A stretch of 64,000 bases of DNA from an uncultured Verrucomicrobiota bacterium. Lineage in GTDB: Bacteria > Verrucomicrobiota > Verrucomicrobiia > Verrucomicrobiales > V1-33. The stretch is from assembly GCA_942492905.1 (NCBI GenBank), contig OW818657.1, positions 4,096,022 to 4,160,021 on the forward strand, written 5' to 3'. Position numbers and translations under genes: made by a program. The notes beneath the pieces are model-generated. The model saw nothing but the letters and a program-made list of their open reading frames with translations. It was not told the DNA's origin and did not search any database. Shown in pieces: positions 3,601 to 26,253 of the stretch; the first letter of the stretch is position 1, and each line of letters starts with the position of its first letter.

Positions 3601-6600
3601 AAATAAACCCGCCAGTGTCCATTTAACGGCAGGCCGTTGGGGAAGTTGGCGGCGTTGGCCCCGGAGACCTCGGGGTCGGTGGTGGGGTACTCCACTTTCA
3701 ACGGTTCCATGCTGTTGTCGGCAGCCGCGATGAAGTCGGTGGTGGGTTCCTCGATGCGTCCCAGCACAGGATCGAAGATGAACATATCCGGGAAGGTTGT
3801 ATGAGTCACGGTGAGCTTGCTGTTCCGACCATAACACATACGGAGGTGGGTGCCGGCGAAAGTGCAGTGATCCACCCAGCCCCATGAACGGATGAACCCC
3901 AGCGATCCGTAGTTTTCCGACCCCGCCGGCGAGGTGCCCTGGGCATTGATGAAGTCGCAGTAGCGGAGGACGTTTTCCTGGTTCATCGAGTCATGGATGC
4001 GCAGGCCTCCCCATTTGGGAGCTCCGGTCTGGGTGCCAAGCTTGATGGGGTCCACATCTGTGGCGCTGTTCGTTCCCGGGATGTGACTGAAGACGATCCT
4101 GCCTGCCGCGGTGCCTTCCGCCCTGATGCGGCCGGTCACAGTGATCCTCACATTCTGGGCGCTTTGCACGTTGACGCCGGGATCAATGCGCAGGGTGACT
4201 CCGGAGGGCACGGTGGTGTTGGCGGTGATGCGGTAGGGCGAACCGGCGAGGGTCCAGCGGACCTCGCCGGCGGGGCTGCCGCCGGCTGTGCCGGTGGGCA
4301 GGGCTCCCATGTCGAGGCGGGAGCCGTCGGGATCGGTCAGAGCCGGGTCAGCGGTATTGATGGCCGGACTGCCGGCGGCGAGAGAGAAGTTCCTCGCCGC
4401 GGCGCTGACGAAGAGCGGGTCCGCCGTTATCGTGCCGGTTCCGGAGGGAGGGGCGGGATCCACCGGATTGGCACCGGCCACATCCTGATAGCAATTGTAG
4501 CTGACCGTGGTCAACGGGTGATCGACCCCGGGGGTGGCGTAGTCATTGAGCATCGGAGTGATGGCGGAGATGATGCAATTCTTGGCATTCACCACAAGTT
4601 GGGCGTTCGGACCGGTGCCGTATTTGTTGCGCACATGGACACCGACATTGTGCCAGTAGACGCCGCCGGACTGGTCCGACTGGTTGGTGGGATGCGACTC
4701 GCCCACGATGGTGCAGCTCTCCATGTTGAGGGTGTAGGTGGTCGCTTCGGAACCGATTTGGGTTTTGCAGGAAATGCCGAAATCGCAGTCAATGATCTGG
4801 GTGCGGCGCACCGTGACGTTGTTCTGCAGGAGGCTCATACCTTTGTCGAAGATGTTGCGCACGATGCAGTCCTCGACAGTCAGGGTTCCGGCCAACAGGT
4901 CGATGCCATCGTCGCCCGCATTGGCAAAGACACTGCGGCGCAGATTGACGGGGCGTCCGCCACTGTCATGGATGTAAATGCAGTCCTCGTCATCCGGCGC
5001 GCCGCTTTCACGGTAGGCCGGGAGCATGTCCGTGAAGTTGCAGTCCTCGATGGTGAGGGCGCTGCCGTCGGTTTCCGGTCCCATGACGCAGCGGGCGAAC
5101 TGGGAGCGGCGCATCACCATGGAGGTGTTGCCGGTGTTGGTCAGGGTCTTCCCGGAAAGATCGGCGATGACGCCGTCATCGAACGTCCAGACTGCTCCAT
5201 TGGCCAGACGGAAGGCGGGACCGGTGCCGGTATGTCCGCCGCCCGGCGAGTGGCAGCCCCGCGAAACGAGGCAGTAGTTCCACGTCGTGGTGGAACCTCC
5301 CACATTAATCTCCCCCCAGCGGCTCCCGGAATCCGCAGCGGTGATGCTGATGGGCTGCGCCAGGGTGCCGGCGGCCTGGATGCTGCCGCTGCCGGTGACG
5401 ATGAGATCGGTGCCGCTGGTGCTCCCCGCGCCGGATGTTCCGGTCATGAGAACGTGGGTGCCGGGGGCTATGACGAGGGTGGCCCCGGTCGGAACGGTGA
5501 GATCACCGGTCACCCGGACCACCCCGCTCCAGTTGGTGATGCCGGCGGGCAGGGTGCCGCTGACGCTGGTGCCGGCAGCTGCGCCGAGACTTGTCAGGGT
5601 TTTGCTGGCGTTGAGCGTTCCGGTGCTGGCGGTGAGGCTGAAACTGCCGGGATCGGCCGCACCGGTGGAGATGCTGGCGCTGAGCTGGAGATCGAAGGTC
5701 ACGTCGCTGCTGCTGGCGTCGTCCTGATGCACCTCCACCGCCAGAGTGTTCACTCCGCTGTGCAACAGGCCCAACGGCAGGGTGACTGCGGCGGTGGAGT
5801 TCTCCCCGGCAGCGGTGGCATATTGATCCAGGGTGACGGCGTCCCCGAGTCCGGCGCTGTTGGCCACCTTGACCCCGTTGACATAGAGCCGGTAGCCGTC
5901 GTCGAATTTCACCTGTCCGGTCACTGCCGTGACGGCGCTGATGTCAGCAATGCTGAAGGTGGTGCGGAAGAGGTAACAGGGCACGTTCTGCGAGCCGGTC
6001 AGGACCGGATTGAAGTCAATGTCAGGAATGGGGGTATTCTCATCGCTGTCCCCGTAGCCGGCCTGGGTCCGGACCGTGGTCCAGGCCGAATCATCAAAAC
6101 CCTCGTTCATCCACGTGGTAGCCGAACTGGCGATAAACGAGGCGAGAGTCGTGGTGTTGAAGTCGCTCTTCGCCTTCCACTCCGATCCAGGCGTGCCGCT
6201 CCCGGAAGTGCCATTCCCGCCCGTGCCGTAGGCAAGGAGCGGTAACGTGGTGGTGGCCCCGCCTCCAATGGTGACAAGGGCGCTGCCCATGCCGTTGGTG
6301 AGGGTCAGGGAGGAGGGGGAAACGGTCACTCCATTGGTGGTCGTCAAGTTGACGGCGGTGTTCCATGCCGCGCGGTTCAGCTGGCCATTTCCGTCCTTCA
6401 GGTCCACGCGGACGAGCACCGGAACCCCGGGGATGAAACTTTCAGGAACCACCATGGTGAGGGAACCCGGTGCCGTGAGGGTGCCATTCACCGTGGTGCC
6501 GGCTGCGGCATTCCAGAGGACCTGGGTGGCATACTCATGGACGACATTGCCTGATCCGTCAGGGCCATCCCAGAAGCGGACCACCACCTGGTTCAGGCCC

Positions 6601-11580: not shown

Positions 11581-12327
11581 ATGAAATCCACCCTCACCGC
11601 CCTCATCCTCACCCTGTCAGTCCTGGTTCCCGGAGCCTCCGCTGAAGACGCCCCTGCCGCCAAGCCCAACACCCTGACGGAAACCGAAAAAGCCGCCGGC
11701 TGGCAGCTGCTCTTCAACGGCTCCGACCTCAAGGGCTGGTCCAATTTCAAAAAAACCACCATCCGTCCCGGCTGGCAGGTGAAGGACGGCCAACTGGTCT
11801 GCGTCAATCCCAAGGACGCCGGCGACCTCGTCAACGCGGCCACCTTCGGCTGGTTCGAACTGCAGCTCGATTATAACATCTCCCCCGCTGGCAACAGCGG
11901 CATCATCTATCACGTCACCGACAAGGGCGATGCCGTCTGGGCCACCGGTCCGGAATTCCAACTCGAGGACAATGAAAAAGCCGCCGACAAAATCCGTTGC
12001 GGCTGGCTCTACGGCCTCTATCAACCCCCGGTCGATCCCGCCACCGGCAAGATCCTCGATGCCACCAAGCCGGCCGGCGAATGGAATCACGTGCGGCTGG
12101 TGATTGCCCCTGACAAGTGCTTCCATGAAATCAATGGCGTGCGCTATTTTGAATACGTCTTCGGCAGCGAGGACTTCAAAAAGCGCATCGCCGACAGCAA
12201 ATTCGGCTCCATGCCGGAGTTCGCCAAATCCGGTTCCGGGTCCATCGCCCTCCAGGGGGACCATGGCTCCGTTGCCTTCCGCAATATCAAGATCAAGCCT
12301 TTGGCAGGCGCCCCCGCGGCCCGGTAA
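11581..12327 (+). CDS. DUF1080 (3-keto-disaccharide hydrolase-like) domain protein, secreted
   Basis: Signal peptide, then GWQLLFNGSDLKGW...WQVKDGQLV...FELQLDYNI...GPEFQLEDN...GSIALQGDHGSVAFRNIKIKPL, which is the typical DUF1080 pattern. Confidence 0.8.
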   Translation: MKSTLTALILTLSVLVPGASAEDAPAAKPNTLTETEKAAGWQLLFNGSDLKGWSNFKKTTIRPGWQVKDGQLVCVNPKDAGDLVNAATFGWFELQLDYNISPAGNSGIIYHVTDKGDAVWATGPEFQLEDNEKAADKIRCGWLYGLYQPPVDPATGKILDATKPAGEWNHVRLVIAPDKCFHEINGVRYFEYVFGSEDFKKRIADSKFGSMPEFAKSGSGSIALQGDHGSVAFRNIKIKPLAGAPAAR

Positions 12328-12376
12328 CTGCTCCGGCAGGACGATCATCAAAGCGCCCTTCAGCAGTCGTCCCCTC

Positions 12377-13875
12377 ATGGCAAGCTCCGGCCTCCGCCAT
12401 GACCGCCTCCAGCCCCTTGGCCTGGCTTGGCACGCCGCTTGGTTGATCGCCTGCTTTTTGGCCGTGCCCCAGGCGGCCCCGGCCAAGGCCCCGGCCGCGA
12501 ATCCCGCCGCGCTGGAAAACATCACGCAAATCATCCGGACCCTGACCAAAGACCCCATCGTGCGCTCCGGCACGGTGGGGTTTTATTTGGCTCCCCTGGA
12601 CCAGGCCGATGCCCCGCTCCTCAAACAGAATGCGGGACAAAGTTTCATCCCGGCCTCGACCCTCAAGACGCTGACCACCGGCACTGCTCTCGAAATCCTC
12701 GGCCCGGATTTCCAATTTGAAACCAAGCTGCAGTATATCCCCGCCACCGGCGACCTCATCATCGAAGGCTCCGGCGACCCCTCCCTCGCCCGGTATGGTT
12801 GGGACAGTCTTTTCAATGAGTGGACCGCCGCACTCCAGGCCACGGGAGTGACCGAAATCACGGGCCGCCTCGTCGCCGACGAGTCGGCTTGGGAATCCCG
12901 GGAAATTCCGGCCGGCTGGACCTGGCAGGACATGGGCAACTATTACGCCCCGCCCCTCACACCGCTCTGCTTCCACGACAACGCCTTCCGCCTCTACTTC
13001 CACCTGTCCGGCAATCCCGGCGACGCGGCAGGGTTTTACGATGCGGCCCCGTGGCCGGCGGATCTGGAAATCATCGACCACCTGAGCATCGGCCAGCCCG
13101 GCACCGGCGATAACGCCTACCTCTCGGGCGGGCCCGGCACCCGCCGCTACCCTTGCAGGGCACCCTCGCAGCCGATGTGGACAAGGCCTTCATCCGGGGA
13201 GCCCTGCCCGACCCTGCGTATTTCTGCGTTCGCGAATTCACCGACTGGCTGAATGCCCGCGAACTTCCCGTGCACGGCCAGCCCACCACCACCCGCCGGG
13301 CATTGGCCGGCCGTGAGCCTCCCGCGATCCCCGTGGAAGGAAAAATCCTGATCGCCACCCACCGTTCCCGCCCCCTGCGCGAAATGCTCCCGGCGATCAA
13401 TCATCGCAGCCTCAATCTCGACTGCGAATGCCTCCTGCGCACCTTTGGCAAAGGCGGGGCGGCGGCCGGGCTGCAGGTCATCCGCGACCACCTCGCGGCC
13501 AAAAACCTCCCCCTTGGCGGGTATGAACAAACCGACGGCTGCGGCCTGTCCCGCACCAACATGATCACTCCCGAACTGATGGCCCGCGCCAACGCTGCCG
13601 TGCTGACCGGTCCGCACGGGGCCGTCTTTTTGGATTCCCTGCCCGGATTGGGAGCGAGCGGCAGCACCCTCCACGAACTGAACGCTTCCGGCCCGGCCAC
13701 CATCCACGCCAAAAGCGGCACCATCGAACGCGTCAAGGGATACACCGGCGTAGTGACCTCCGCCGCCGGCCCGCGCTATTGTTTCAGCATCCTCATCAAC
13801 AACTACGACGGCTCCTTCAGCGGAGCGGTCGAGCCCCGGCTGGATGAGCTTTTCGAAGCCCTCGCCCAGCTGTAA
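12377..13875 (+). pseudogene. dacB: D-alanyl-D-alanine carboxypeptidase/endopeptidase (PBP4, peptidase S13), interrupted by a frameshift near 13150
   Basis: ATG at 12377 gives MASSGLRHD..., a signal-like stretch, and FIPASTLKTLTT (SxxK active-site motif). The frame-2 reading is sensible up to ...AYLSGGPGTRRYP. The homologous continuation LQGTLAADVDKAFIRGALPDPAYF...HAKSGTIERVKGYTG (KTG-like box) runs in frame 1 from 13153 to 13875. One extra C in the CCC run at 13150-13152 would fuse the two halves as ...RRYPLQGTL.... Confidence 0.8.
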
Positions 13876-15545: not shown

Positions 15546-15572
15546 TTCTCCAAAATATCGGTAGATAAATAC

Positions 15573-15663
15573 CCATCGGAAACAGCCGTAGAGGCCCCGA
15601 CATCGACAAGGAAGTTCGGGCTATCGGGAAATTTCATGAGACAAGGATGGCAGTTTCCGATGG
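15573..15663. repeat. Inverted repeat, 15-bp arms (14/15) separated by 61 nt, between convergent prfC and the TPR gene
   Basis: Left arm ccatcggaaacagcc (15573-15587). Right arm ggcagtttccgatgg (15649-15663), whose reverse complement is ccatcggaaactgcc. Confidence 0.6.
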
Positions 15664-15668
15664 CGTGA

Positions 15669-17951
15669 TTATGTTCCTTGTTTTAATCCACCCTGCATCT
15701 GTTTGAGATTCCTGCTAGCCATCTGATGATAGTAGGGCAACTCGTCCTTCGTCCAAATCTCCAGCGCCGCACGATACGCCTGCTCCGCGGCCTTCCACAG
15801 CTCCCGTTGCGTCGGACCGCTTTCCCGGTTGGCTTGGAGACTCAATGCGCAGCCCAGATTATTCTGTGTCATCGCCCAGTCCTGCGGGAGAGCATCGCGA
15901 GTGTAAACTTTCAGGGCAGCGCGGAAAGCCTTCACTGCTCCCCCCAGCAGGCGCTGCCCCCGCTCTCCCTCACTCCGTTCCCCTTGGGCTCCCAAGGCGG
16001 TGCCCAGATTATTCTGCGTCATCGCCCAGTCCTGCGGCATCGCCTCGCGGGTGTAAATTTGCAGGGCGGAGCGGTAGGCCTGCACCGCCTCCCAGAGCAG
16101 ACGAACCCTCGTCACTCCCTGGCTCCTCGAACCATAATCCCTCAAGGCAGTACCAAGATTATTCTGAGTCATCGCCCACTGATGTGGCATCGCCTCGCGG
16201 GTATGCACCTCCAGAGCGGCACGGTAGGCCTGCACCACTTCCGCCATTAGGCGCTGCTCTTCCTCGTCCTCTCTCTGCCCGACTTGTTTACTCAGAGCAG
16301 CAGCTAGATTGTTCTGCGTCATCGCCCAGTCCTGCGGCATCGCCTCGCGAGTGTAAACTTGCAGGGCGTCCCGGTAGGCCTGCACCGCCTCCCGGAGCAG
16401 ACGGACCCTCTCCGCCCCCTCACTCCGCAAGCCTTGTTCCCTCAGAGCGTTGCCCATATTACTCTGCGTCATTGCCCAGTCCTGCGGCAACTCCCCCCGG
16501 GTGCGCATCTCCAAGGCGGCTTGGAAGGCCTGCACTGCTTCCCGCAGCAGGCGATTCCCCTCCTGCGGCTCGACTCGTAGGCCGAGTGCAAAACAGGCCA
16601 CCCCCAGATCATTTTGCAACATGGCCCAAATCTGCGGAAAGCCTAGCCGGGTGGCGAGGGTGAAAGCCTCTCGAAAGTGCGAGGGGACGGCGCGGTAGTC
16701 GCCCCGGTAGTAGCAGGCCAGACCGGCACGATAGTAATCGAGAGCGATGGACTCAGTTAGGTCGTCAAGTTGTGCAGCTTTTTGGCGGGCGGCTTCGAGG
16801 GATTTGGATTCAGCTTCCACGAACCGGGTTTCGGCGAGGAGGGCGATGGCTTGGGTGGTGAGGTTGCGCGAAGCAAGGGCGTGGGTCAGGAGGGTTTCCA
16901 GTTCGGTGACAGGGATTTTCAGACGGGTGGCGAGTTCCTGTTCGAGTTCCTGACGGGAGAGGTCGGCTAGAGATTTTCCCTGCCCGGCCTGTTGGCGTGC
17001 AAGATCGGCCATGACCTGCTCCAAACGCGCGAGCTGGGCGAATTGATCGTCGAGCTTGGTGTGGGTGGTGGCGTGGAAGTGACGATTTTCGACGGCGAGG
17101 GTTTGGAGTTGATCCTCAATGCAGCGGATACCGAGCGTGAGTTCGGTTTTCCAGTGTACGAGGAGGGTGCGTCGCTCGGTCTCGAGGGCAGTGGCGGTTT
17201 CCGGAGTGGGATTCTGTAGGAGGATGAGAATTTCGTCGAGTTTCCCGAGGGCGAGGCGGCCGTGCTGCTGGAGGGTTTGGGCGGTGAGGTATTGGTAGGA
17301 GACCCAAGCTTGGGAGGGCTTGCCGTCAGGCGCGGCGTGCATTTGGTCGAGGAAGTGAATCTGGAACTGCGCGTTGAGGTGCTGGCATACCCAGTCGATA
17401 AAAACCCGGCAGGCGGACTCGGCTTGGGAGTCAAGGTGAGCGGCCTTGGTGATGAGCCTTTCTGTGAGGCTGGCGCGGAGGGCGGTGGCCAGGGTATCGC
17501 GCGCGTCGGAGGCGGGACCGGATTGCTCGAGGAGGTCTTTGAGGAAGGCGTCTTCGACTTTGACGATGGGATCGGTGCCGACGGCGGGGCGTGCGGTGAA
17601 GGACCTGAGATCCCGAAACCAAGTCTCCATCGCGAGAATCTGGGGACGGTGGAGGGTATTCCATTCACCGGGGTGGTCTTTTTCAAAGCCTTTGAGAGGG
17701 GGGCCTTTGGCGGCATCATCCATGGTTTTGAGGAAGGCAGCGTGGAAGGCGACGGCGAACCAGTGAGTCGGCTCGCCGGGGGGCCGGCCGAGGACGCTCT
17801 TTAGCCAGTCAGGAAAATGCTCGCAGAGTTTGCCAACGGAGGCCCCAAAGAGCGCGGAGCCGGTAACGGGATCGGGGGAGATGAGCAGCTTGGCGGTTTC
17901 CGCAATGAAATGGCCTCCCAGAACTACAGCTAGAGTTGATACGCCCGGCAT
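15669..17951 (-). CDS. Tetratricopeptide-repeat protein (760 aa) with uncharacterised N-terminal ~430 aa
   Basis: ATG start. The C-terminal ~310 aa consists of six clear modules and one degenerate module of ~42-44 aa (LLREAVQAYRxALxVYTREAMPQDWAMTQNNLGxAL). The N-terminal region has predicted helical/coiled-coil stretches. I saw no P-loop or other catalytic motif. Confidence 0.85.
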   Translation of the reverse strand: MPGVSTLAVVLGGHFIAETAKLLISPDPVTGSALFGASVGKLCEHFPDWLKSVLGRPPGEPTHWFAVAFHAAFLKTMDDAAKGPPLKGFEKDHPGEWNTLHRPQILAMETWFRDLRSFTARPAVGTDPIVKVEDAFLKDLLEQSGPASDARDTLATALRASLTERLITKAAHLDSQAESACRVFIDWVCQHLNAQFQIHFLDQMHAAPDGKPSQAWVSYQYLTAQTLQQHGRLALGKLDEILILLQNPTPETATALETERRTLLVHWKTELTLGIRCIEDQLQTLAVENRHFHATTHTKLDDQFAQLARLEQVMADLARQQAGQGKSLADLSRQELEQELATRLKIPVTELETLLTHALASRNLTTQAIALLAETRFVEAESKSLEAARQKAAQLDDLTESIALDYYRAGLACYYRGDYRAVPSHFREAFTLATRLGFPQIWAMLQNDLGVACFALGLRVEPQEGNRLLREAVQAFQAALEMRTRGELPQDWAMTQSNMGNALREQGLRSEGAERVRLLREAVQAYRDALQVYTREAMPQDWAMTQNNLAAALSKQVGQREDEEEQRLMAEVVQAYRAALEVHTREAMPHQWAMTQNNLGTALRDYGSRSQGVTRVRLLWEAVQAYRSALQIYTREAMPQDWAMTQNNLGTALGAQGERSEGERGQRLLGGAVKAFRAALKVYTRDALPQDWAMTQNNLGCALSLQANRESGPTQRELWKAAEQAYRAALEIWTKDELPYYHQMASRNLKQMQGGLKQGT
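15719..16643 (-). repeat. In-frame tandem coding repeats (~126-132 nt TPR-pair modules) inside the TPR gene
   Basis: Recurring DNA blocks such as ...attattctg(c/a/t)gtcatcgcccagtcctgcgg(c/g)a... match the WAMTQNN motif. Six copies are visible by eye. Confidence 0.8.
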
Positions 17952-18272
17952 GGTGGATGGAGGCTAACGCTGAGCACGCAATTGTCGAAGGGAATCGCGG
18001 GCCGTAGGCACATACCCTCAAAATACTGGAGCACGCCATCAACTCGACAAAACGGTGCCGCCAAGCTCAACCCCCTGCGCTGTTCCAGCAGTATTAGTAT
18101 GACAGCAATAGTTTTACCCTTTGCCGGTCCGTGGGCAGAGGTCCAGCGACTCGGCGGGTCGGGTGAATTCGGCAGGAAAGGTGGCAGGAAGCAGAAAAAC
18201 CCTCCATTAATCCTCTGACAGTGAATGCCTTACACCAAAATGAGCCGAATCCAGGAGTTACGCCCGGAAGCC

Positions 18273-18512
18273 GTCTCCTTATAAGGAGACGCTCTTCTCC
18301 TTATCGGGAGGACCCCTTCTCTTGACAAGGAGAGACCCTTCTCCTTAGCAGGAGGACCCCTTCTCTTGATAAGAAGACACCCTTCTCCTTACCAGGAAGA
18401 CCTCTTCTCTTGATACGGAGACACCCTCCTCCTTATCAGGAGGACCCCTTCTCTTGACAAGGAGAGACCCTTCTCCTTAGCAGGAGGACCTCTTCTCTTG
18501 ATAAGGAGATGA
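18273..18512. repeat. Tandem array of 11 x 22-bp palindromic pyrimidine-tract/purine-tract units (44-bp and 132-bp higher-order periodicity), noncoding
   Basis: The pyrimidine tract TCTC(C)TT starts at 18274, 18296, 18318, 18340, 18362, 18384, 18406, 18428, 18450, 18472 and 18494, an exact 22-nt phase. Each tract is followed 2-4 nt later by AAGGAGA or AGGAGGA. Positions 18273-18290 (gtctccttataaggagac) form a perfect palindrome. Confidence 0.95.
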
Positions 18513-18638
18513 CCTTCCCCGGAGCCAAAGGCGGGGCGCTTCAATCCCGGTTTCTGCCCGGCCATGGGTTGGCTGTCCCTGCTCTGCTACTCGGGCAGGA
18601 GCCTCGTCCACCCCGGCGGCGGCGGCTATTGTCAAAGT

Positions 18639-18661
18639 CCCAGCCAGGATTCCTGGCTGGG
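18639..18661 (-). terminator. Candidate terminator hairpin downstream of the 18694..22644 gene
   Basis: cccagccagg-att-cctggctggg: perfect 10-bp stem, 3-nt loop, 33 nt past the stop codon. The downstream U-tract on the minus strand is weak (acuuug), so confidence is low. Confidence 0.35.
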
Positions 18662-18693
18662 GTTGGTATTCCAAGGCTGCCCGGAGGCGGTGC

Positions 18694-21600
18694 TTATTGA
18701 GGATGGGCGGCGAGCCACGCGTCAACATCGTTGGTGACGATCAGGCGGCCCCACATCACAGCGGCGTGTCCGGGGAAGGTGCAGACGAATTCGTATTCGC
18801 CCTCGGCCTTGGGGGCGGTGAGTTGGAGACGTTCCTTCTGACCGGGTTCGAGGAGGGACGTCGCTGCTAGGGTGGGGAAACCCTTGGGCAGGTAGGCGCG
18901 GCCATTCCGGTCCTTGCGGTCGGGGGGCATGGTGAGGGCCGCGTTGCCGATCGCCATGTGCTGGCCGGGGTCGACAAACACGAGGTTGTGAGGCATCACA
19001 TCGTTATTCTCGAAGAGGACCTCGAATGGTTTGCCGGCCGTGACCACCAGACGGTTGGTGTCGTATTTGAGCTGCTCGCGGACGGTCTTCAGCACAAAGA
19101 TACTTACACCGAGGGAGCGCAGTTCCTTGGCCAGAGGCATATTCCCGGCGAGCGCGGCCATCTCCAGGCCCAGTTGGTTCAGCTCGACAAAGGATTGCTC
19201 ACTGCGCTTTTTCGCATCGACCTGCCGGTTGATCGCCAACACCTTTTGGGCAATACCCGCAGCCTGCGTTTTGTCCCAGGCATCGCGGGGGAGCTGCATG
19301 ATCGCATTGGCGATGGCGTGCGGCTCCTGGCCTTCGGTGAGGAATTTCGCCAGCAGCGTGAAGTTGGCCGCGGCATGGTCCACTCCCATCAGGGGCAAGG
19401 CCATGAGAGCGGCTTTCCGGAGGGGGCTGGTGGTTTGCGCGTTGTTGATCAGGGCCAGGAGCGCCGGCTGGAAGGGGCTGCGCAGCGCCGGGTCGGCCAC
19501 TGCTCCCAGGCTGGCGATGAGGGCTTCCCGGTCGGCGGGTTTGCCCTCCGAAGCCGTCCACAACGCGTCGGGTTTGCCATCGGCCACCACCAGCGCACTC
19601 CAGGCAGCCTCGCGGATGGCGGGCAATTTGGCGGAGCCGGCGGCCTTCATCAGATCGGCACGGGCGGCTGCCAATTCAGCAGGTGCGGTGGCGGGGAGCA
19701 GCCGGCCCAGCGCGGCAGCAGCGGCGGCCATCCCCTCCCCTTTGGCGTCGAGGCGTTGCAGGTTCCCCAACAGGATGGCCATGCGGGAAGTTTTGGTCAG
19801 GGCCATGAGATCACTGACGGCCTTTTCCCGGGCCACCGCATCGAAACTGCTGCGCTCCAGCTTGGTCTGCAACACCGCTGCCACGGCGGGGAGTTTGTCG
19901 AGATCCTTGTCGGCAGTCTGGGCCAGCACGAGGGTGAGGAGCACCGGGTCTTCCGGCAGGGATTTCTCCGTGCGGATGGAATCCAGTTGGCGCATGGTCT
20001 GCGTGTAAGTGTATTTCAGATAGCTGTCGGACTCATACTTCAAGGTGGTCTGCGCGACGGTGACGGCTTTGGCGGCCTCCTCACCACTGAAAAAACTGGC
20101 GACGCGGACCGCTTCGAGCCGGACCCGGGGCGCGCTGTCATTGGCGGCGGCCATCAGGTAATCCAATGCTTCAGGAATCCGGTCCATCTGATAACCGATG
20201 ACGCGGACGGCCTGGGCCCGGGCGCGGGGTTCCGGGCTTTTCAGCAGGGTTTCCAGCAGCGGGATATTCACGGCATTGTGCCATTGGTGGACCCAGAGGG
20301 CTTCCAGCAGATGGTGCGCGTCCCCGGCTTTGTTGGGGTCGAATTGTTTGGCCCACTCCTGGGTGGCGGCGATCACCTGGGCGCTGTCATGTTTGCTCAA
20401 CTCGATTTTCGCCCGCAGACGGACGTCATTCTCAGGTTCCTTGAGCAGCTCCAGCAGTTTGACGATCGGCTCGCCATCCACCTTTTTCGGTTCCAGCAAG
20501 GGACGGGAAGGATAGGTGATGCGGTAGAGGCGGCCATGCTGGTGGTCGCGGTTGGGATCGCGCAGATGGTGCTGCAGGTGGCCGATCAGCATTTGGGACC
20601 AGTCCATGAAGTAGAGCGAGCCGTCCGGAGCCACCGTGATCCCGGAGGGGCGGAAGTTGGGATTTTTGGCCACGTCGGTGGAGACCAGATGATCCACGGT
20701 CTTGCCTTTGATCCCGGCGCCTTCGTCGGAGAGTTCAGCCCGGAAGATACCCTGGAAGCTGATCACGTTGGCATTGAGAAACTGTCCCTGCCAGGACTCC
20801 GGAAAATGCCGGCTGGTAAGGATCGCGGTGCCGGCACAGGGGCGGGAGGGGCGGTCCCAGAATTGTTGGTAGCCCGGATGGGAACCCTGATCCAGATGGC
20901 CGCTGAAACCAGGCCCAAAGTAGTTGGCGTTGCCGGTGGCATCGGTGATCAGGTCATTCCCCCAATAGTCAAAGACCCGGCCGTGGGGGTTGGCAAAGCC
21001 ATAGGGCACGTGACGCCGGAACTTGCTGGTGCTGGGTTCATAACGATAGATGGCACCGTCCGTGTTCCGCACCGGCCCGAGGTAGGTTTCCACATTGGTG
21101 CGGTGGAAGACGCCATCACTCAGGTAGATGGCCCCGCCGGGTTCATAACAGATCGAGTTCGTCTCGTGGTGGGAATCCGCCGCATCCAGGCCGTGCAGCA
21201 GGCGCTCCCTGGAGTCGGCCTTGCCATCCCCATCGGTATCCCGCAGGAACCAGAGATCGGGCGACTGCATCACGATGACGCCATCCTTGTAGAATTGAAA
21301 ACCAGTCGGGCAATTCAAACCATCGGCAAAGGTGGTGCACTTCAACGGCTGGCCCGTTTTGGGATCGAGATCGAAATAGATCAGCTTGTCGAAGTTGGTG
21401 GTGGTCGGGGAAGTTTCCGGATAGCTCGGCCAGACGGAAATCCAGAGCCGGCCCTTGGTGTCAAAGTTCATCTGCACCGGATTGATGAGTTCCGGGAAGG
21501 TGGCTTCGGAGGCGATGAATTCCAGCTTGCAGCCTTCCGCCACGGTAATGTGCTGCATCGCTTCCTCACCACTCAGGTAGGGCACGGCATCCTTCCGGTT

Positions 21601-22644
21601 CGGCGGGGTGAGATCCACTGGCGGCAGATTGTCGTCCTTGATCTGGTAGTCCCTGCCCTGAGCCGCCGCCCACACCGCGCGGTCGCGGTTGGCCGTGAGG
21701 ACATCCCGCTGCGCCAACTCCTGTCCCAGGATGGTGGCATTGTCGGTGCCTTCGTATTTGATGCGGGAGCGTCCGCCAAAAATGTTGTACTGGTCCACGG
21801 TGCGGTAGCGGTGGTGCCATTGGGAGTTTTTCTCCACCACGGCGGCCCGGATCTTTTCCAAAGCCGCTTCCTTCGTATCCGGGGCAGCCTTGCCGAAGAG
21901 CGCCTCAAACTGCACGGGAGCCAGGGCACGGTCCCCGGTTTCGGTGAGGTGAATCCCATTGAGGGTCAGCCGCTGCGGGGATTTCGCATAAAGATCGAGG
22001 GACGCATGATACAAGTCCACGAAAGGCACTTTGTTCAGGTCGGCCACCTCGGCCATGATTTTGGTGTAGACCTCCAAATTCAGATTGGTCTTCGCCCCAT
22101 CCGGGAAGTTCGCGTCCTGCAGGTTTTCGTGGGCGATGGGGGAAAACAACACCACCCGGGGCGGGGCCTGCGCCCCATTGCCGGTGGTGGTTTTTTTGAG
22201 ATAGGCATCCAGATTTTGACGGAACCCATTGGCCCCCGCGGCGCCTTTGAAGGACTCATTGAATCCCCAATAAGCGAAAATGACCGAGGCATTGAAGTCG
22301 GTCCCGGCCTTATAGACGACCTGGGTGTCCCCGATTTTAACCACCGTGTCGCCCTTCTTCATATTGAGGAAATATTCGGTCTTCGGCACCTCATCGGAGC
22401 GGGGGTGCAGATTCACTTCATCAGCGGCAAAGCCCAGGTTGCGCACCGTCAGTTCCAAATCCGGATAGGCCCGGTGGATCATGGCTTCCAAGTAACCATG
22501 GTGTTGCTGGCGGTCCGCCAGGCCACTGCCCACGATGGCGATCTGGTCGCCCTTTTTGAGTTCCAGTCGGACCGTCTGGTTGGCGGCATGCAGTGGAGCC
22601 GTGACGGCAAAAACGCAAAGAACAGGCAGATATCTTAAAATCAT
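18694..22644 (-). CDS. Multidomain secreted protein: SGNH/GDSL-like hydrolase, dehydrogenase-like beta-propeller, HEAT repeats, C-terminal azurin-like cupredoxin
   Basis: I prefer the ATG at 22644 (MILRYLPVLCVFAVTAPLHA signal peptide) over the ORF-track start at 22836.
- Propeller block: DGKADSRERLLHGL...HHETNSICYEPGGAIYLSDG.
- HEAT-like helical repeats: PRARAQAVRVIG..., APRVRLEAVRV....
- C-terminus: MPHNLVFV...GEYEFVCTFPGHAAVMWGRLIV, which is an azurin-type His/Cys/His/Met copper-ligand pattern.
- I found no CxxCH motif. Confidence 0.85.
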   Translation of the reverse strand: MILRYLPVLCVFAVTAPLHAANQTVRLELKKGDQIAIVGSGLADRQQHHGYLEAMIHRAYPDLELTVRNLGFAADEVNLHPRSDEVPKTEYFLNMKKGDTVVKIGDTQVVYKAGTDFNASVIFAYWGFNESFKGAAGANGFRQNLDAYLKKTTTGNGAQAPPRVVLFSPIAHENLQDANFPDGAKTNLNLEVYTKIMAEVADLNKVPFVDLYHASLDLYAKSPQRLTLNGIHLTETGDRALAPVQFEALFGKAAPDTKEAALEKIRAAVVEKNSQWHHRYRTVDQYNIFGGRSRIKYEGTDNATILGQELAQRDVLTANRDRAVWAAAQGRDYQIKDDNLPPVDLTPPNRKDAVPYLSGEEAMQHITVAEGCKLEFIASEATFPELINPVQMNFDTKGRLWISVWPSYPETSPTTTNFDKLIYFDLDPKTGQPLKCTTFADGLNCPTGFQFYKDGVIVMQSPDLWFLRDTDGDGKADSRERLLHGLDAADSHHETNSICYEPGGAIYLSDGVFHRTNVETYLGPVRNTDGAIYRYEPSTSKFRRHVPYGFANPHGRVFDYWGNDLITDATGNANYFGPGFSGHLDQGSHPGYQQFWDRPSRPCAGTAILTSRHFPESWQGQFLNANVISFQGIFRAELSDEGAGIKGKTVDHLVSTDVAKNPNFRPSGITVAPDGSLYFMDWSQMLIGHLQHHLRDPNRDHQHGRLYRITYPSRPLLEPKKVDGEPIVKLLELLKEPENDVRLRAKIELSKHDSAQVIAATQEWAKQFDPNKAGDAHHLLEALWVHQWHNAVNIPLLETLLKSPEPRARAQAVRVIGYQMDRIPEALDYLMAAANDSAPRVRLEAVRVASFFSGEEAAKAVTVAQTTLKYESDSYLKYTYTQTMRQLDSIRTEKSLPEDPVLLTLVLAQTADKDLDKLPAVAAVLQTKLERSSFDAVAREKAVSDLMALTKTSRMAILLGNLQRLDAKGEGMAAAAAALGRLLPATAPAELAAARADLMKAAGSAKLPAIREAAWSALVVADGKPDALWTASEGKPADREALIASLGAVADPALRSPFQPALLALINNAQTTSPLRKAALMALPLMGVDHAAANFTLLAKFLTEGQEPHAIANAIMQLPRDAWDKTQAAGIAQKVLAINRQVDAKKRSEQSFVELNQLGLEMAALAGNMPLAKELRSLGVSIFVLKTVREQLKYDTNRLVVTAGKPFEVLFENNDVMPHNLVFVDPGQHMAIGNAALTMPPDRKDRNGRAYLPKGFPTLAATSLLEPGQKERLQLTAPKAEGEYEFVCTFPGHAAVMWGRLIVTNDVDAWLAAHPQ

Positions 22645-22810
22645 GGCAAAGGACGAAATCGGTGATGGAAGCAGCAAAGGCCGGAAAGACTTGCTCCATA
22701 CTCCCTGAAAGGCGGGGGTCTTGCACCTTCCCACCCAATCGTGTGAAATGCGCCGCCGCGCGGCAGACCCGTTGGGTTGACGCCGCCCGCTCCCGGATGA
22801 TGATACACCC

Positions 22811-23314
22811 ATGAAATGGATGCGCTTTCCCTTCAAGACCCTGCTGGTGATGGGGCTGCTCAGTTTTGTCCTCGTGGATTACCCGCCCCTGAAACTGACC
22901 TTCGCCCACACCAAGGACATGGTGAAGAAAGCCGAGTTTTATCCGCTGTCGTCCTTTTCCATGTATTCCACTTTTTCAGAAGCGCCATTTCTGGTGTTCA
23001 TCACCGATGGGGCGGGCCAAAAAATCGCGATCGACTCCTCCTTGAAGACCCACGCTTCGGAACTCAAAAAGACCTACGAGATGCGGCTGAAAGCCCTCAA
23101 AAAACAAGGCTCGCTCCCGGGTAAATTGACCGATCTCCCGCTCGCAATCAAAGCCGAGGCCGGCCGCGATACCTTGGAACTGCTCAAGGCCCGGCCCAGT
23201 GTCCAGGAATATCTCGCCACCAGGGATAACCAAACGTTGCGACTGCACGAAATCATCCTGACCGCCGGAGATGACGGGATCGTGAAACAGGAACAATGGG
23301 TCGCGGAACTGTAA
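22811..23314 (+). CDS. Hypothetical membrane-anchored protein (167 aa)
   Basis: ATG start, N-terminal hydrophobic helix (FKTLLVMGLLSFVLV), coding-like composition. Divergent from the 18694..22644 gene. No family recognised. Confidence 0.6.
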   Translation: MKWMRFPFKTLLVMGLLSFVLVDYPPLKLTFAHTKDMVKKAEFYPLSSFSMYSTFSEAPFLVFITDGAGQKIAIDSSLKTHASELKKTYEMRLKALKKQGSLPGKLTDLPLAIKAEAGRDTLELLKARPSVQEYLATRDNQTLRLHEIILTAGDDGIVKQEQWVAEL

Positions 23315-25907: not shown

Positions 25908-26154
25908 AGACCGGTTGGATGGCAGTCCCGTAGACACCAGCGATGATGAACACGGTTCCGGCAAGTCGGGATGGCGGGCCCAGCAGCAGCCGAGGTCCCC
26001 GCCCCCCTTTCCCATAGCCTGATGACGTAAAAGTCGAGGCACGATGCTGTTCCGGTCGGCCCCTGACAGGAACAAAGGGCCGGGCGTATCAATTCCCGGA
26101 ATTTGGAGCTCGAGACCGCCTCCAAGCATTACCTCCACGGTCAAAAGAATCGAA

Positions 26155-26245
26155 GCCTTATTCATTAATTATAGAATTACGTTGACATAAATATAATTTA
26201 CGATCATGGTAATTATGGATATTATTAATTAAATAATTCCCCTCC
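26155..26245 (+). promoter_or_regulatory. Strongly AT-rich block upstream of the DUF3494/PEP-CTERM gene (putative promoter/UP region)
   Basis: About 90 nt of almost pure A/T in an otherwise GC-rich window. It contains TTGACA (26182-26187), TATAAT (26192-26197), three taattat motifs and the palindrome ttaattaa. The two hexamers are not correctly spaced relative to each other, so the actual promoter is unresolved. Confidence 0.3.
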
Positions 26246-26253
26246 CCCCAACC

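Follow-up and report, generated by a model that had tools for sequence, protein, structure and literature searches.

The stretch of DNA analyzed here, referred to as the window, comprises 64,000 nt of contig OW818657.1 (assembly GCA_942492905.1) from an uncultured Verrucomicrobiota bacterium (Verrucomicrobiales; V1-33). It contains a tandem array of 11 units of 22 bp (positions 18273 to 18514), which is preceded on its left by a conserved leader sequence, the head, and is flanked by two minus-strand genes whose domains were assigned with Pfam. The gene at 15669 to 17951 encodes a 760 aa TPR-repeat protein; its start is located about 230 nt to the left of the head, and the array lies about 320 nt upstream of this start on the same strand. 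The upstream gene (18694 to 22836) encodes a 1380 aa protein containing DUF7133, HEAT, cupredoxin and GDSL domains. An RNA fold of region 18600 to 18700, together with the sequence, revealed a 10-bp GC-rich hairpin at 18639 to 18661 (CCCAGCCAGG-ATT-CCTGGCTGGG, minus strand), 33 nt past the stop codon of the 1380 aa gene. This hairpin is probably the terminator of that gene and could work in both directions.

A homology search with the TPR protein gave no close homologue, the sole member of its cluster being the protein itself, and neither this protein nor the other neighboring proteins matched PADLOC or PDB entries. There was no exact-protein match on record for the TPR protein and RF3 of the window. 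The element lies in a variable island beside prfC, which at the corresponding locus of a relative (L028) contains toxin-antitoxin genes and a duplicated 3' fragment of prfC. No GC-skew switch (origin or terminus) was found at the locus. Pfam searches of window ORFs between positions 3 and 51350 detected no transposase nearby, no Cas domain and no par, rep or DNA-binding gene; genes of the latter three kinds were also absent beside the four instances of the element described below, and no ParA or ParB domain was present in these ORFs or in the called genes of related loci.

Layout of the repeat array

Tandem Repeats Finder applied to the window reported a repeat at 18274 to 18509 with a period of 44, 5.4 copies, 85% matches, 0% indels and a score of 346. 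Laid out in 22-nt steps from position 18273, the sequence consists of 11 gap-free units. Each unit opens with a pyrimidine arm of 7 nt, which is followed by a center of 4 nt, a purine arm of 7 nt and a C-rich linker of 4 nt. The higher-order period of 44 bp arises from the alternation of two unit types, and because both have pyrimidine arm, purine arm and C-rich linker in this order the units are arranged head-to-tail. These results bear out the original prediction of 11 head-to-tail units of 22 bp without indels and with a 44-bp period, as well as its claim that unit 1 (GTCTCCTTATAAGGAGAC, 18273 to 18290) is a perfect palindrome of 18 bp. The predicted repetition of 18303 to 18370 at 18435 to 18502 was also found: these segments differ at 2 of 68 positions, and near-identity at offset 132 spans 18297 to 18373 (copy at 18429 to 18505; no stretch with two or fewer mismatches is longer than its 77 nt). 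The repeat is a recent duplication of three 44-bp super-units. Compared with itself, the array is 84% identical at an offset of 44 and 88% at one of 132. Positions 18515 to 18536 (TTCCCCGGAGCCAAAGGCGGGG) plausibly hold a degenerate 12th unit, which is in register with the array and has complementary ends (CCCCG/CGGGG); the distal ends of two related arrays, L004 and L031, contain three degenerate units each.

The array was found only once in the 64-kb window, and a search with the unit pattern allowing up to three mismatches gave five matches, all within the array (expected, 0.01). Coding potential was rejected: every one of the six frames contains one to six stop codons, the longest open stretch is 43 codons, and the array is not coding, in agreement with the original prediction that no frame stays open. 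It is not a CRISPR array either, since it has no unique spacers and all its units belong to two mutually similar types. A hairpin with a 7-bp stem and a 4-nt loop can be drawn every 11 nt along the array, and the two mutually exclusive pairing registers put forward earlier are therefore real. The statement that real gene starts in the window mostly lack a Shine-Dalgarno (SD) sequence was also supported, an SD-like motif being present at 2 of 23 approximate starts.

The conserved head

The original prediction does not mention the head, which occupies positions 18185 to 18272 directly to the left of the array. It is homologous to the sequence preceding the arrays at three other loci (L001, L004 and L031), and in all four cases it has the same orientation and lies on the same side of the array. 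nhmmer detected the head with E = 1e-22 in the window and with E = 1e-35 to 1e-37 in the other three, and covariance model R1 gave 91.9 bits at 18185 to 18275. Pairwise identity between heads of independent loci is 66 to 79%, and conservation occurs in blocks rather than uniformly. The most conserved internal block, TAATCCTCTGACAGTGA (TAATTCCCTGACGGTGA in the others; 18208 to 18224, alignments A3, A7 and A11), has a single occurrence in the window. Its plus strand includes a weak -35-like sequence, CTGACR, which may form part of a putative promoter.

A hairpin is present at 18250 to 18268, where the plus strand reads TCCAGG-AGTTACG-CCCGGA and the minus strand, to which the hairpin is assigned, UCCGGG-CGUAACU-CCUGGA. 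Three of the four sequences share its core, GAGTTACGCCCGGA, without any change. Pairing is preserved in 24 of 24 cells on the minus strand versus 18 of 24 on the plus strand, and on the minus strand the hairpin is followed by a U-rich tract. The equivalent site in L001 appeared terminator-like on the minus strand in a consensus scan. Conservation of the head extends about 70 nt or more past the hairpin. A second helix, UCAGAG...UCCUGC (18184 to 18218, minus strand), predicted by RNAalifold, is a weak candidate, with 91.7% of cells paired on the minus strand versus 87.5% on the plus strand. The head helices display one-sided G-U changes only; in the head hairpin, pairing is kept through such changes on one strand, a feature in keeping with an RNA.

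A start codon in the head is found in different frames in the window and in L004, as read from the sequences, and the region adjoining the units is relatively A+T-rich in L001, L004 and L031 only. The head sequence AATCCARGAGTTA is one mismatch away from WATCAANNNNTTR, which we take to be the IHF consensus. Inspection together with Rfam ruled out a hammerhead-like CUGANGA...GAAA motif, and a sigma-54 -24/-12 reading of the U-rich tract was ruled out by inspection because its GG and GC are not conserved. Head block TCAAATTCCCCGCTAA agreed at 14 of 16 positions with a motif that precedes phosphatase genes in L018 and L022, a level of similarity not above shuffles.

Other instances and their distribution

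A head followed by an array with fixed polarity was found in four instances: the window, L001, L004 and L031. The L001 array has 3 units of the window type. L004 (16 units) and L031 (12 units) are an orthologous pair in which the unit sequence is unrelated to that of the window: their arms are TCCAACT/AGTTGGA and they contain no SD/anti-SD tracts. The L004 array has a period of 44 (6.5 copies), with an 18-bp palindrome every 43 to 44 bp. A comparison of unit number between relatives revealed array lengths of 351 bp in L004 versus 265 bp in L031, even though the flanking proteins are 92% identical. The L001 head is 79% identical to the L004 head and 68% to the window head, and its units are nonetheless of the window type; the arms have therefore turned over fast, as happens in the specificity switching of a sequence-specific binder, a point against an RNA module.

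Several claims of the original prediction are affected by these instances. An assembly artefact, which it had considered, is excluded because the same architecture is present in three independent assemblies. The SD/anti-SD tracts, which it had treated as essential, are not, since L004 and L031 share the head and the architecture; judged from these sequences, the resemblance of the array to ribosome-binding sites is incidental. A dispersed family, which it had named as a possible refutation, finds no support in the DNA searched, as neither further head copies (nhmmer and covariance model) nor dispersed single units (fuzzy search) were found in the 64-kb window or in some 0.35 to 0.4 Mb of partly redundant related loci.

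The neighboring genes differ among all three independent loci (window, L001 and L004/L031). The element is missing at orthologous sites of close relatives whose flanking proteins are 80 to 96% identical; with the exception of L031, it was absent from the orthologous loci of prfC, of the L001 5'-nucleotidase and of the L004 296-aa protein. The L006 orthologue of the 1380 aa gene is not followed by an array, and in a close relative an HSP70-GrpE-DnaJ-like operon replaces the TPR gene and the array. Presence at non-orthologous sites and absence from near relatives are unusual for an sRNA gene. Alignments of L001 with L018/L022 and of the window with L006 showed no significant homology next to the element, and neither the boundaries of an insertion nor terminal inverted repeats nor a target duplication could be established from them.

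A two-unit DNA pattern had a single match in metagenomes, L001, and none in genome contigs, the source genome included. A 20-mer of the head matched L004 in genome contigs, along with three chance matches within coding regions (L002, L003 and L005), and had no match in viral contigs. Searches of Rfam at gathering thresholds and at E <= 10 returned only far-below-threshold noise (miRNA, RsaE, CC2171), BLAST searches against plasmids and phages gave no similarity, and the element had no match in viral contigs or PADLOC. The statement that no element with the same organization has been described holds for these collections. The best explanation of the sequence comparisons is a low-copy, non-coding, accessory element of two parts that would belong to a narrow Verrucomicrobiota clade. 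By the same comparisons, the array (3 to 16 units of 22 bp) is the fast-changing half and the head, of about 90 to 125 bp, the conserved half.

Pairing, candidate functions and known systems

Kept across lineages are the 22/44-bp period, the two complementary 7-nt arms, the free 4-nt center, the C-rich linker and the head; unit sequence, SD/anti-SD tracts and the link to a TPR gene are not. Among 23 units from four arrays, which were picked as palindromic ones, include duplication-related paralogues and would score likewise if they were DNA palindromes, 89.4% of the cells of the 7-bp unit helix are paired and five of the seven pairs have changed on both sides. In 500 shuffles, neither the pairing nor the covariation score of the real units was ever reached. 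Window-type and L004-type units have the linker CCC(C/T) in common (linker tetranucleotides are CCCC, ACCC and CCCT) and the centers vary (TATA, TATC, GACA, TAGC, GATC and GGTC). From the covarying stems, drifting centers and fixed linker we infer that the array acts as a single-stranded nucleic acid; as far as sequence can tell, this conservation pattern points to selection on within-strand hairpins, which would produce it.

The folding called for in the original prediction was obtained for the plus-strand RNA of the window array (z = -6.9 versus shuffles). For L004 it is modest (z = -2.75 and -3.3 on its two strands), which together with conflicting strand signals speaks against an RNA module. 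Mismatches in the arrays favor the head-first strand (18 G-U cells versus roughly 5 A-C cells, the latter counted by hand), whereas the head hairpin favors the opposite strand; the strand evidence thus conflicts. In none of the loci did consensus scans detect a promoter on the strand required, and L001 alone yielded a terminator. As read from the unit sequences, each second unit of L004 and L031 is a poor hairpin (3 of 7 pairs). Several units are perfect 18-bp palindromes, center included, as one would expect of a DNA dyad more than of an RNA hairpin.

Our leading interpretation, which we put forward tentatively, is that the element is a transcribed multi-hairpin RNA module. The array RNA would present one C-rich tetranucleotide (G-rich on the other strand) per 22 nt, exposed between hairpins or, in the alternative register, atop hairpins. 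It would be a multivalent platform, or a sponge, to which an unlinked partner binds. In a plus-strand reading, the head would provide a conserved promoter and 5' domain; in a minus-strand reading, it would provide a conserved 3' domain and terminator. Unit number would shift through slippage or unequal recombination, and the units inside one genome would be homogenized in concert.

REP/BIME clusters, sopC and ToxI arrays are partial analogues. Of the three explanations offered in the original prediction, multi-hairpin RNA and a protein-binding iteron- or centromere-like array survive, unseparated, and the TPR-regulating minisatellite is not supported. A serious, though rather unlikely, rival of our interpretation is that the array acts as double-stranded DNA and provides binding sites for a dimeric protein, be it as a centromere-like, iteron-like, operator or titration locus. 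The protein would read the palindromic arms, the 22-bp (two-turn) spacing would place the sites on nearly one helix face, the head would supply accessory sites, and the arms would switch by lineage with the specificity of the protein. This agrees with the 16- to 18-bp palindromes at strict 22- or 44-bp spacing, some of which continue right through the center, with the inconsistent RNA strand signal, and with the complete, fast turnover of arms while the head stayed 79% identical, which fits specificity switching. The arm mismatches, however, are mostly G-T on one strand, which is irrelevant to duplex binding. Iteron-type replication origins have directly repeated iterons of about 17 to 22 bp beside a rep gene, an A+T-rich unwinding element and DnaA boxes; in the plasmid origin R6K gamma, seven contiguous 22-bp iterons lie beside A+T-rich and IHF sites. 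The contiguous 22-bp units, the A+T-rich adjoining region (L001, L004 and L031) and the sequence AATCCARGAGTTA, which would be IHF-like by the presumed consensus, are reminiscent of such arrays; unlike iterons, which are non-palindromic, the units are palindromic, and there is no rep gene, no recognized DnaA box and no plasmid similarity. The 18-bp palindrome per 43 to 44 bp in L004 closely parallels F-plasmid sopC, which consists of 12 x 43 bp with a 16-bp inverted repeat in each repeat (PMC3177203). Both have direct repeats of about 43 to 44 bp with 16- to 18-bp palindromes, especially in the case of L004/L031, and copy number is similar. In contrast to sopC, a type Ia plasmid centromere that adjoins the sopA/sopB operon and is bound by SopB, the element is chromosomal, has no sopA/sopB-like genes nearby and is attached to a head; every 22-bp unit of the window is palindromic; and it is the linker, not the palindrome, that is conserved between lineages. 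The latter is the reverse of base-specific arm recognition, barring co-evolution of the protein. Neither the surroundings of the four instances nor window ORFs between positions 3 and 51350 contain a par, rep or DNA-binding gene, and no plasmid or phage record is similar. Rather unlikely, but deserving serious consideration, is a REP/BIME-like or MITE-like selfish hairpin repeat, whose units would, as single-stranded DNA, be substrates of an enzyme acting in trans, for example an HUH/Y1 transposase. Units would expand locally and travel with the head to new sites, and any effect on the cell would be a side effect, be it transcript stabilization, termination, or cruciform/nucleoid binding of the kind described for E. 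coli REP325/naRNA4. The three unrelated intergenic sites, the absence from orthologous sites whose flanking proteins are 80 to 96% identical, and the location of the window copy in the variable island with, in L028, toxin-antitoxin genes and a prfC fragment all suit such a repeat, and the one-strand G-T tolerance of the head hairpin fits single-stranded DNA as well as RNA. Like REP/BIME sequences, for example REP325, the source of naRNA4, the window units are short (22 bp with 7-bp arms), palindromic, intergenic and clustered. Neighboring units in BIMEs alternate in orientation, whereas those of the window are all head-to-tail, and they lack the GTAG/CGTC tag that marks one end of the REP stem, having CCCC, ACCC or CCCT instead. 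REP/BIMEs form intergenic clusters of short imperfect palindromes with two alternating flavors and variable unit number, and their stems, which are species-specific beside a short conserved motif, can form RNA hairpins or DNA cruciforms (PMC4550694; PMC3733652). GTAG/CGTC-tagged REPs can recur in tandem head-to-tail, and a conserved tetranucleotide with a covarying stem follows their logic (PMC3733652). REP units measure 20 to 40 bp, occur in many copies scattered over a genome and are associated with a RAYT (Y1/HUH) transposase. By contrast, neither the 64-kb window nor the 0.35 to 0.4 Mb of partly redundant related loci show any dispersal of the element, no transposase is nearby, neither terminal inverted repeats nor a target duplication can be defined, and the element is always joined to a unique head of about 100 bp whose conservation is blockwise rather than uniform.

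Much lower probabilities apply to three explanations tied to particular genes or tracts. A minus-strand locus resembling type III toxin-antitoxin systems, in which a repeat RNA array and a terminator hairpin precede a gene whose protein is curbed by the processed repeats, is very unlikely. The defining parts of type III loci are tandem repeats, a Rho-independent terminator and a gene for a toxin (PMC5086642). Similar to ToxI, the minus strand carries a 5.4 x 44 nt tandem array, next the hairpin with its U-rich tract and finally a gene, which is the TPR gene in the window and a lysine-rich ORF in L004; the prfC-side island, moreover, holds toxin-antitoxin genes in a relative. Unlike ToxN, CptN and TenpN, however, the downstream proteins are mutually unrelated and vary by locus, none is a ToxN-like endoribonuclease, and there is no PADLOC, Pfam toxin or PDB match. 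In addition, L004 has a promoter-like site between the head and the lysine-rich ORF, the L031 copy of this ORF appears frameshifted from its sequence, and the head, which has no counterpart in ToxI systems, is conserved for about 70 nt or more past the hairpin. We also consider it highly improbable that the array is a cis-regulatory contingency locus whose unit number tunes the TPR promoter. Its same-strand location, some 320 nt ahead of the TPR start, and the variation of unit number between relatives are in line with this, but the other three instances adjoin unrelated genes, TPR homologues are unassociated with the element, the TPR protein itself has no close homologue, a close relative has the HSP70-GrpE-DnaJ-like operon instead of the TPR gene and array, and no promoter emerged from the consensus scan. 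Hardly credible, and largely refuted by L004 and L031, is a mimic of SD/anti-SD sequences acting as a sponge for ribosomes, 16S 3' ends or CsrA-type GGA binders. The window and L001 units do carry AGGAG(G/A) and CTCCT tracts and ACAAGGA or CAGGA motifs; L004 and L031, despite the same head and architecture, do not. Protein-sponge sRNAs such as CsrB, RsmY/Z and CrcZ are built from repeated hairpin or motif modules in varying number, and apart from a short motif that recurs and the upstream region, their sequence is poorly conserved. In contrast to these sRNAs, no GGA or A-rich motif is conserved here, and CCC(C/U), or the complement of it, would be the conserved motif that is repeated. Whereas CsrB/Rsm RNAs expose several GGA motifs in hairpin loops, those of the window units reside in stems and are not conserved in L004/L031; the CsrB and Rsm family models of Rfam gave no match.

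A bolder reading, decidedly doubtful at present, is that leader-linked hairpin arrays without spacers form a new class, which in Verrucomicrobiota would act as a mobile cassette for RNA-protein recognition. Like CRISPR arrays, the element has a leader on one side of regular, partly palindromic repeats and degenerate units at the far end; it differs from them in having no unique spacers, 22-bp units and no cas genes (window ORFs between positions 3 and 51350). The head would direct expression or polar growth of the 22-nt hairpin modules, which an unlinked protein would read, by analogy to Cas6 or ToxN with their repeats. The arm sequence would switch by lineage as a specificity code while linker and head stay fixed, and the cassette would possibly belong to an accessory (defence or competition) island.

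Whatever the function, the SD/anti-SD appearance is a lineage accident and the TPR gene is not tied to the element; for finding more members the head (GAGTTACGCCCGGA and TAATTCCCTGACGGTGA) is informative and the repeat is not. If the element is a low-copy REP-like repeat, it is of modest interest only. If it proves to be a functional RNA or an array for protein recognition, it would rank among the very few non-coding elements that have been described in Verrucomicrobiota, and would be a clean natural example of concerted evolution rewriting a stem while keeping the pairing, the period and a 4-nt linker.

The array of the window and its surroundings

In agreement with the original prediction, Tandem Repeats Finder (TRF) reported an array at positions 18274-18509 of the window with a period of 44, 5.4 copies, 85% matches, no indels and a score of 346. 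Two unit types, TTCTCCTTAnnAGGAGGACCCC and TTCTCTTGAnAAGGAGAnACCC (22-nt steps cut from 18273), alternate over 11 units, unit 1 being a perfect 18-bp palindrome, and the copy of 18303-18370 at an offset of 132 bp contains two mismatches. As also predicted, stop codons are present in all six frames, and a hairpin with a 7-bp stem and a 4-nt loop can be drawn at each 11-nt step, so that each purine arm has two possible partners, the pyrimidine arms before and after it. The unit pattern was found five times in the window, always within the array, versus 0.01 matches expected. RNA folding of the array gave z = -6.9 for the plus strand and z = -2.8 for the minus strand.

The array is located in a 742-bp gap between the stop codon of the gene for a 1380-aa protein (DUF7133, HEAT, cupredoxin; 18694-22836, minus strand) and the start of the gene for a 760-aa TPR protein (15669-17951, minus strand). 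A 10-bp GC-rich hairpin just beyond the stop of the former gene (18639-18661) is probably its terminator, in which case the array would not usually be transcribed by read-through from this gene. The TPR gene contains a 150-bp tandem repeat (15852-16554; 4.7 copies, 71% matches) encoding ∼50-aa repeats of the form ...REAVQAYRxALxVYTREAMPQDWAMTQNNLGxAL....

The 90%-identity cluster of RF3 (peptide chain release factor 3, the prfC product), encoded beside the TPR gene, includes proteins named Verrucomicrobiota or Verrucomicrobiaceae, and the remaining window genes form an ordinary chromosomal set of Verrucomicrobiota (e.g. PSCyt/PSD1, DUF1501, pyruvate carboxylase). Pfam analysis of the ORFs in 3-51350 detected no par, rep, transposase, cas, CsrA or ToxN genes; the lack of cas genes, and of spacers in the array, bears out the claim that it is not a CRISPR. 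The D-Ala-D-Ala carboxypeptidase (Peptidase_S13) gene at 12104-13875 is broken into two overlapping ORFs, one matching the N-terminal and the other the C-terminal half of the family, pointing to a sequencing error, a frameshift or a pseudogene. A stretch of ∼120 bp (∼26130-26253) located upstream of the gene for an ice-binding-like protein is strikingly A+T-rich for a genome of 62% G+C and contains repeated AATTA and TTACG motifs.

A shared head and divergent arrays

A two-unit pattern gave no matches in species-representative genomes and matched a single contig in metagenomes, L001, where the array is limited to three window-type units. On the left of these units, ∼90 nt including the invariant GAGTTACGCCCGGA align with the window; this segment, located at 18185-18272 in the window, we name the head. 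A scan of genomes with the head sequence led to locus L004, where the same head borders, on the same side as in the window, an array of 16 22-bp units (TRF period 44, 6.5 copies) that are unrelated in sequence to those of the window (TTCCAACTGATCAGTTGGGCCC alternating with TGTCATCTGGTCACTTGTGCCC). Locus L031 is orthologous to L004 (92% identity between the flanking 296-aa proteins) and has the head with an array of 265 bp versus 351 bp in L004, i.e. four units fewer, two of its units being without counterpart in L004. A head profile (nhmmer) matched the window, L001, L004 and L031 with E = 1e-22 to 1e-37 and nothing else, and a covariance model revealed no further copies in the window (filters off) or in 142 kb of relatives. 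Thus, the original prediction was right about the array and incomplete, because the head had been overlooked.

In a MAFFT alignment, units of the window type and of the L004 type have their dyad centres in shared columns. Over 23 units, which are paralogous and non-independent and represent L004/L031 solely by their palindromic alternate units, 89.4% of the cells of the 7-bp helix are paired and five of the seven pairs show changes on both sides (e.g. U-A to A-U, C-G to A-U), levels reached by none of 500 shuffles for either pairing or covariation, although a DNA palindrome would yield identical counts. The remaining alternate units of L004/L031 pair at only three of seven positions. The 4-nt centres are free to vary, and the 4-nt linker is C-rich (CCCC, ACCC or CCCT) in both unit types, always on one strand with respect to the head. 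The SD/anti-SD tracts, presented originally as a key feature, are restricted to the unit type of the window and L001; they are no family property, and SD mimicry is not supported.

Compared with L004, L031 carries a 67-bp insertion (777-843) that ends in 11-bp inverted repeats (TACTGCCGCGC...GCGCGGCAGTA) and has duplicated its TA target. It is a small MITE, and its presence gives rise to a promoter-like TCCACA-18-TATAAT directed towards the 296-aa gene.

Genomic contexts of the element

The surroundings of the element (head plus array) have nothing in common among the three independent loci. In the window it is flanked by the TPR start and the DUF7133 stop, in L001 it lies upstream of a Tat-signal 5′-nucleotidase, and in L004 and L031 it separates the 296-aa protein, which is secreted, from a doubtful lysine-rich ORF. 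This ORF (MKAKPKAKTKP...), left of the L004 element, has lost ∼130 nt and is frameshifted in L031 (L004 2012-2302 versus L031 1-250), and may be decaying or not a real gene. The proposed regulation of the TPR gene by the array is not supported, the neighbours elsewhere being unrelated.

The interval between prfC and the DUF7133 gene contains an HSP70-GrpE-DnaJ-like operon in the related loci L006-L015, and toxin-antitoxin genes together with a duplicated 3′ fragment of prfC in L028-L030, in all cases without the element. Since its content differs, the TPR gene and the element of the window lie in a variable island, and the 3′ end of prfC is suggested to be an integration hotspot. The island spans 15546-18693 in the window, 11624-17436 in L006, where an 892-aa gene accompanies the operon, and 3348-6959 in L028, with PIN toxin-antitoxin genes and the duplicated RF3 C-terminal fragment at 4619-5011. 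The element is likewise absent upstream of the 5′-nucleotidase gene in L018-L027 (protein in the 90%-identity cluster of that of L001) and in L016 and L017 (∼80% identity), and is absent in L033 (67% identity). No dispersed single units were found in the ∼0.4 Mb of DNA examined (window plus partly redundant related loci). Together, the unrelated contexts, the absence at orthologous sites and the lack of dispersed units show that the element is low-copy, accessory and non-syntenic.

Another sequence, of ∼70-97 nt with a hairpin (CCGGTGGCG...CGCCACCGG), is present at L001 362-458 and twice in L018 (4540-4609 and 5900-5996), where the two copies precede a 277-aa gene and the 5′-nucleotidase gene; it may be a shared 5′-UTR or regulatory element. 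The motif GAATTCAATTTCCCAGCTAAWTTACGAAG (L018 2187, 2299 and 5783; L022 1230) lies upstream of phosphatase-type genes (PhoD-like metallophosphatase, 5′-nucleotidase) and probably marks a promoter or the site of a regulator in this lineage. The likeness of part of it to head block TCAAATTCCCCGCTAA (14/16) is not above chance.

Strand signals and possible modes of action

A neutral minisatellite is unlikely in view of the covarying stem and free centre combined with a fixed linker, period and head. The same features argue that self-complementarity itself is selected, and thus that the element would act as a single strand. Tentatively, we rank first a transcribed multi-hairpin RNA module, in which the head would be a conserved promoter plus the 5′ part of the RNA, or alternatively its 3′ part, and recognition would be of the repeated C-rich (or G-rich) tetranucleotides. 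The strand signals rest on at most four to five independent events and conflict in direction: non-Watson-Crick cells of the array are mostly G-U on the window plus (head-first) strand (18 versus ∼5 for the other, the latter a hand count), whereas the head hairpin at 18250-18268 pairs in 24/24 cells on the minus strand and 18/24 on the plus strand, the difference being due to one fixed change and two lineage-specific ones that form G-U pairs on minus alone. The RNAalifold consensus energy of the head is -16.4 kcal/mol on minus and -9.7 on plus, and the L001 head hairpin with its U-rich tail was scanned as terminator-like on the minus strand. The fold of L004 is modestly beyond shuffles on both strands. 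Consensus scans detected no promoter on the required strand in any locus; CTGACR-N15-17-(G/C)AAAAT in the head might, weakly, be read as one.

A duplex protein-binding array ranks close behind, likewise at low confidence. Its best analogue would be sopC, described as 12 repeats of 43 bp that each carry a 16-bp inverted repeat (PMC3177203); unlike sopC-type centromeres and iteron origins, the element is accompanied by neither par nor rep genes and shows no similarity to plasmids. Level with it we place a selfish hairpin repeat of the REP/BIME kind, for which tagged REPs and the REP325 cluster are the closest analogues (PMC3733652, PMC4550694), but the element lacks a tag, dispersal and alternating orientation. 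The L001 head is 79% identical to that of L004 and 68% to that of the window, yet its units are of the window type, indicating that older arms were quickly replaced by L004-type arms. Such turnover fits equally sequence-specific recognition with specificity switching and array replacement. For a type III toxin-antitoxin-like arrangement on the minus strand the order array, hairpin, gene agrees (PMC5086642), but this reading fails: there is no toxin as would accompany ToxI, and the neighbouring proteins have no PADLOC or PDB match. Csr/Rsm RNAs differ by their loop GGA, which the element lacks, and it has no Rfam match.

In line with the original statement that no such organisation has been described, none was present in curated libraries of RNAs, plasmids, phages and defence systems. 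The element is a member of no family tested and resembles several in its possible mode of action; it is real, non-random and evolutionarily maintained.
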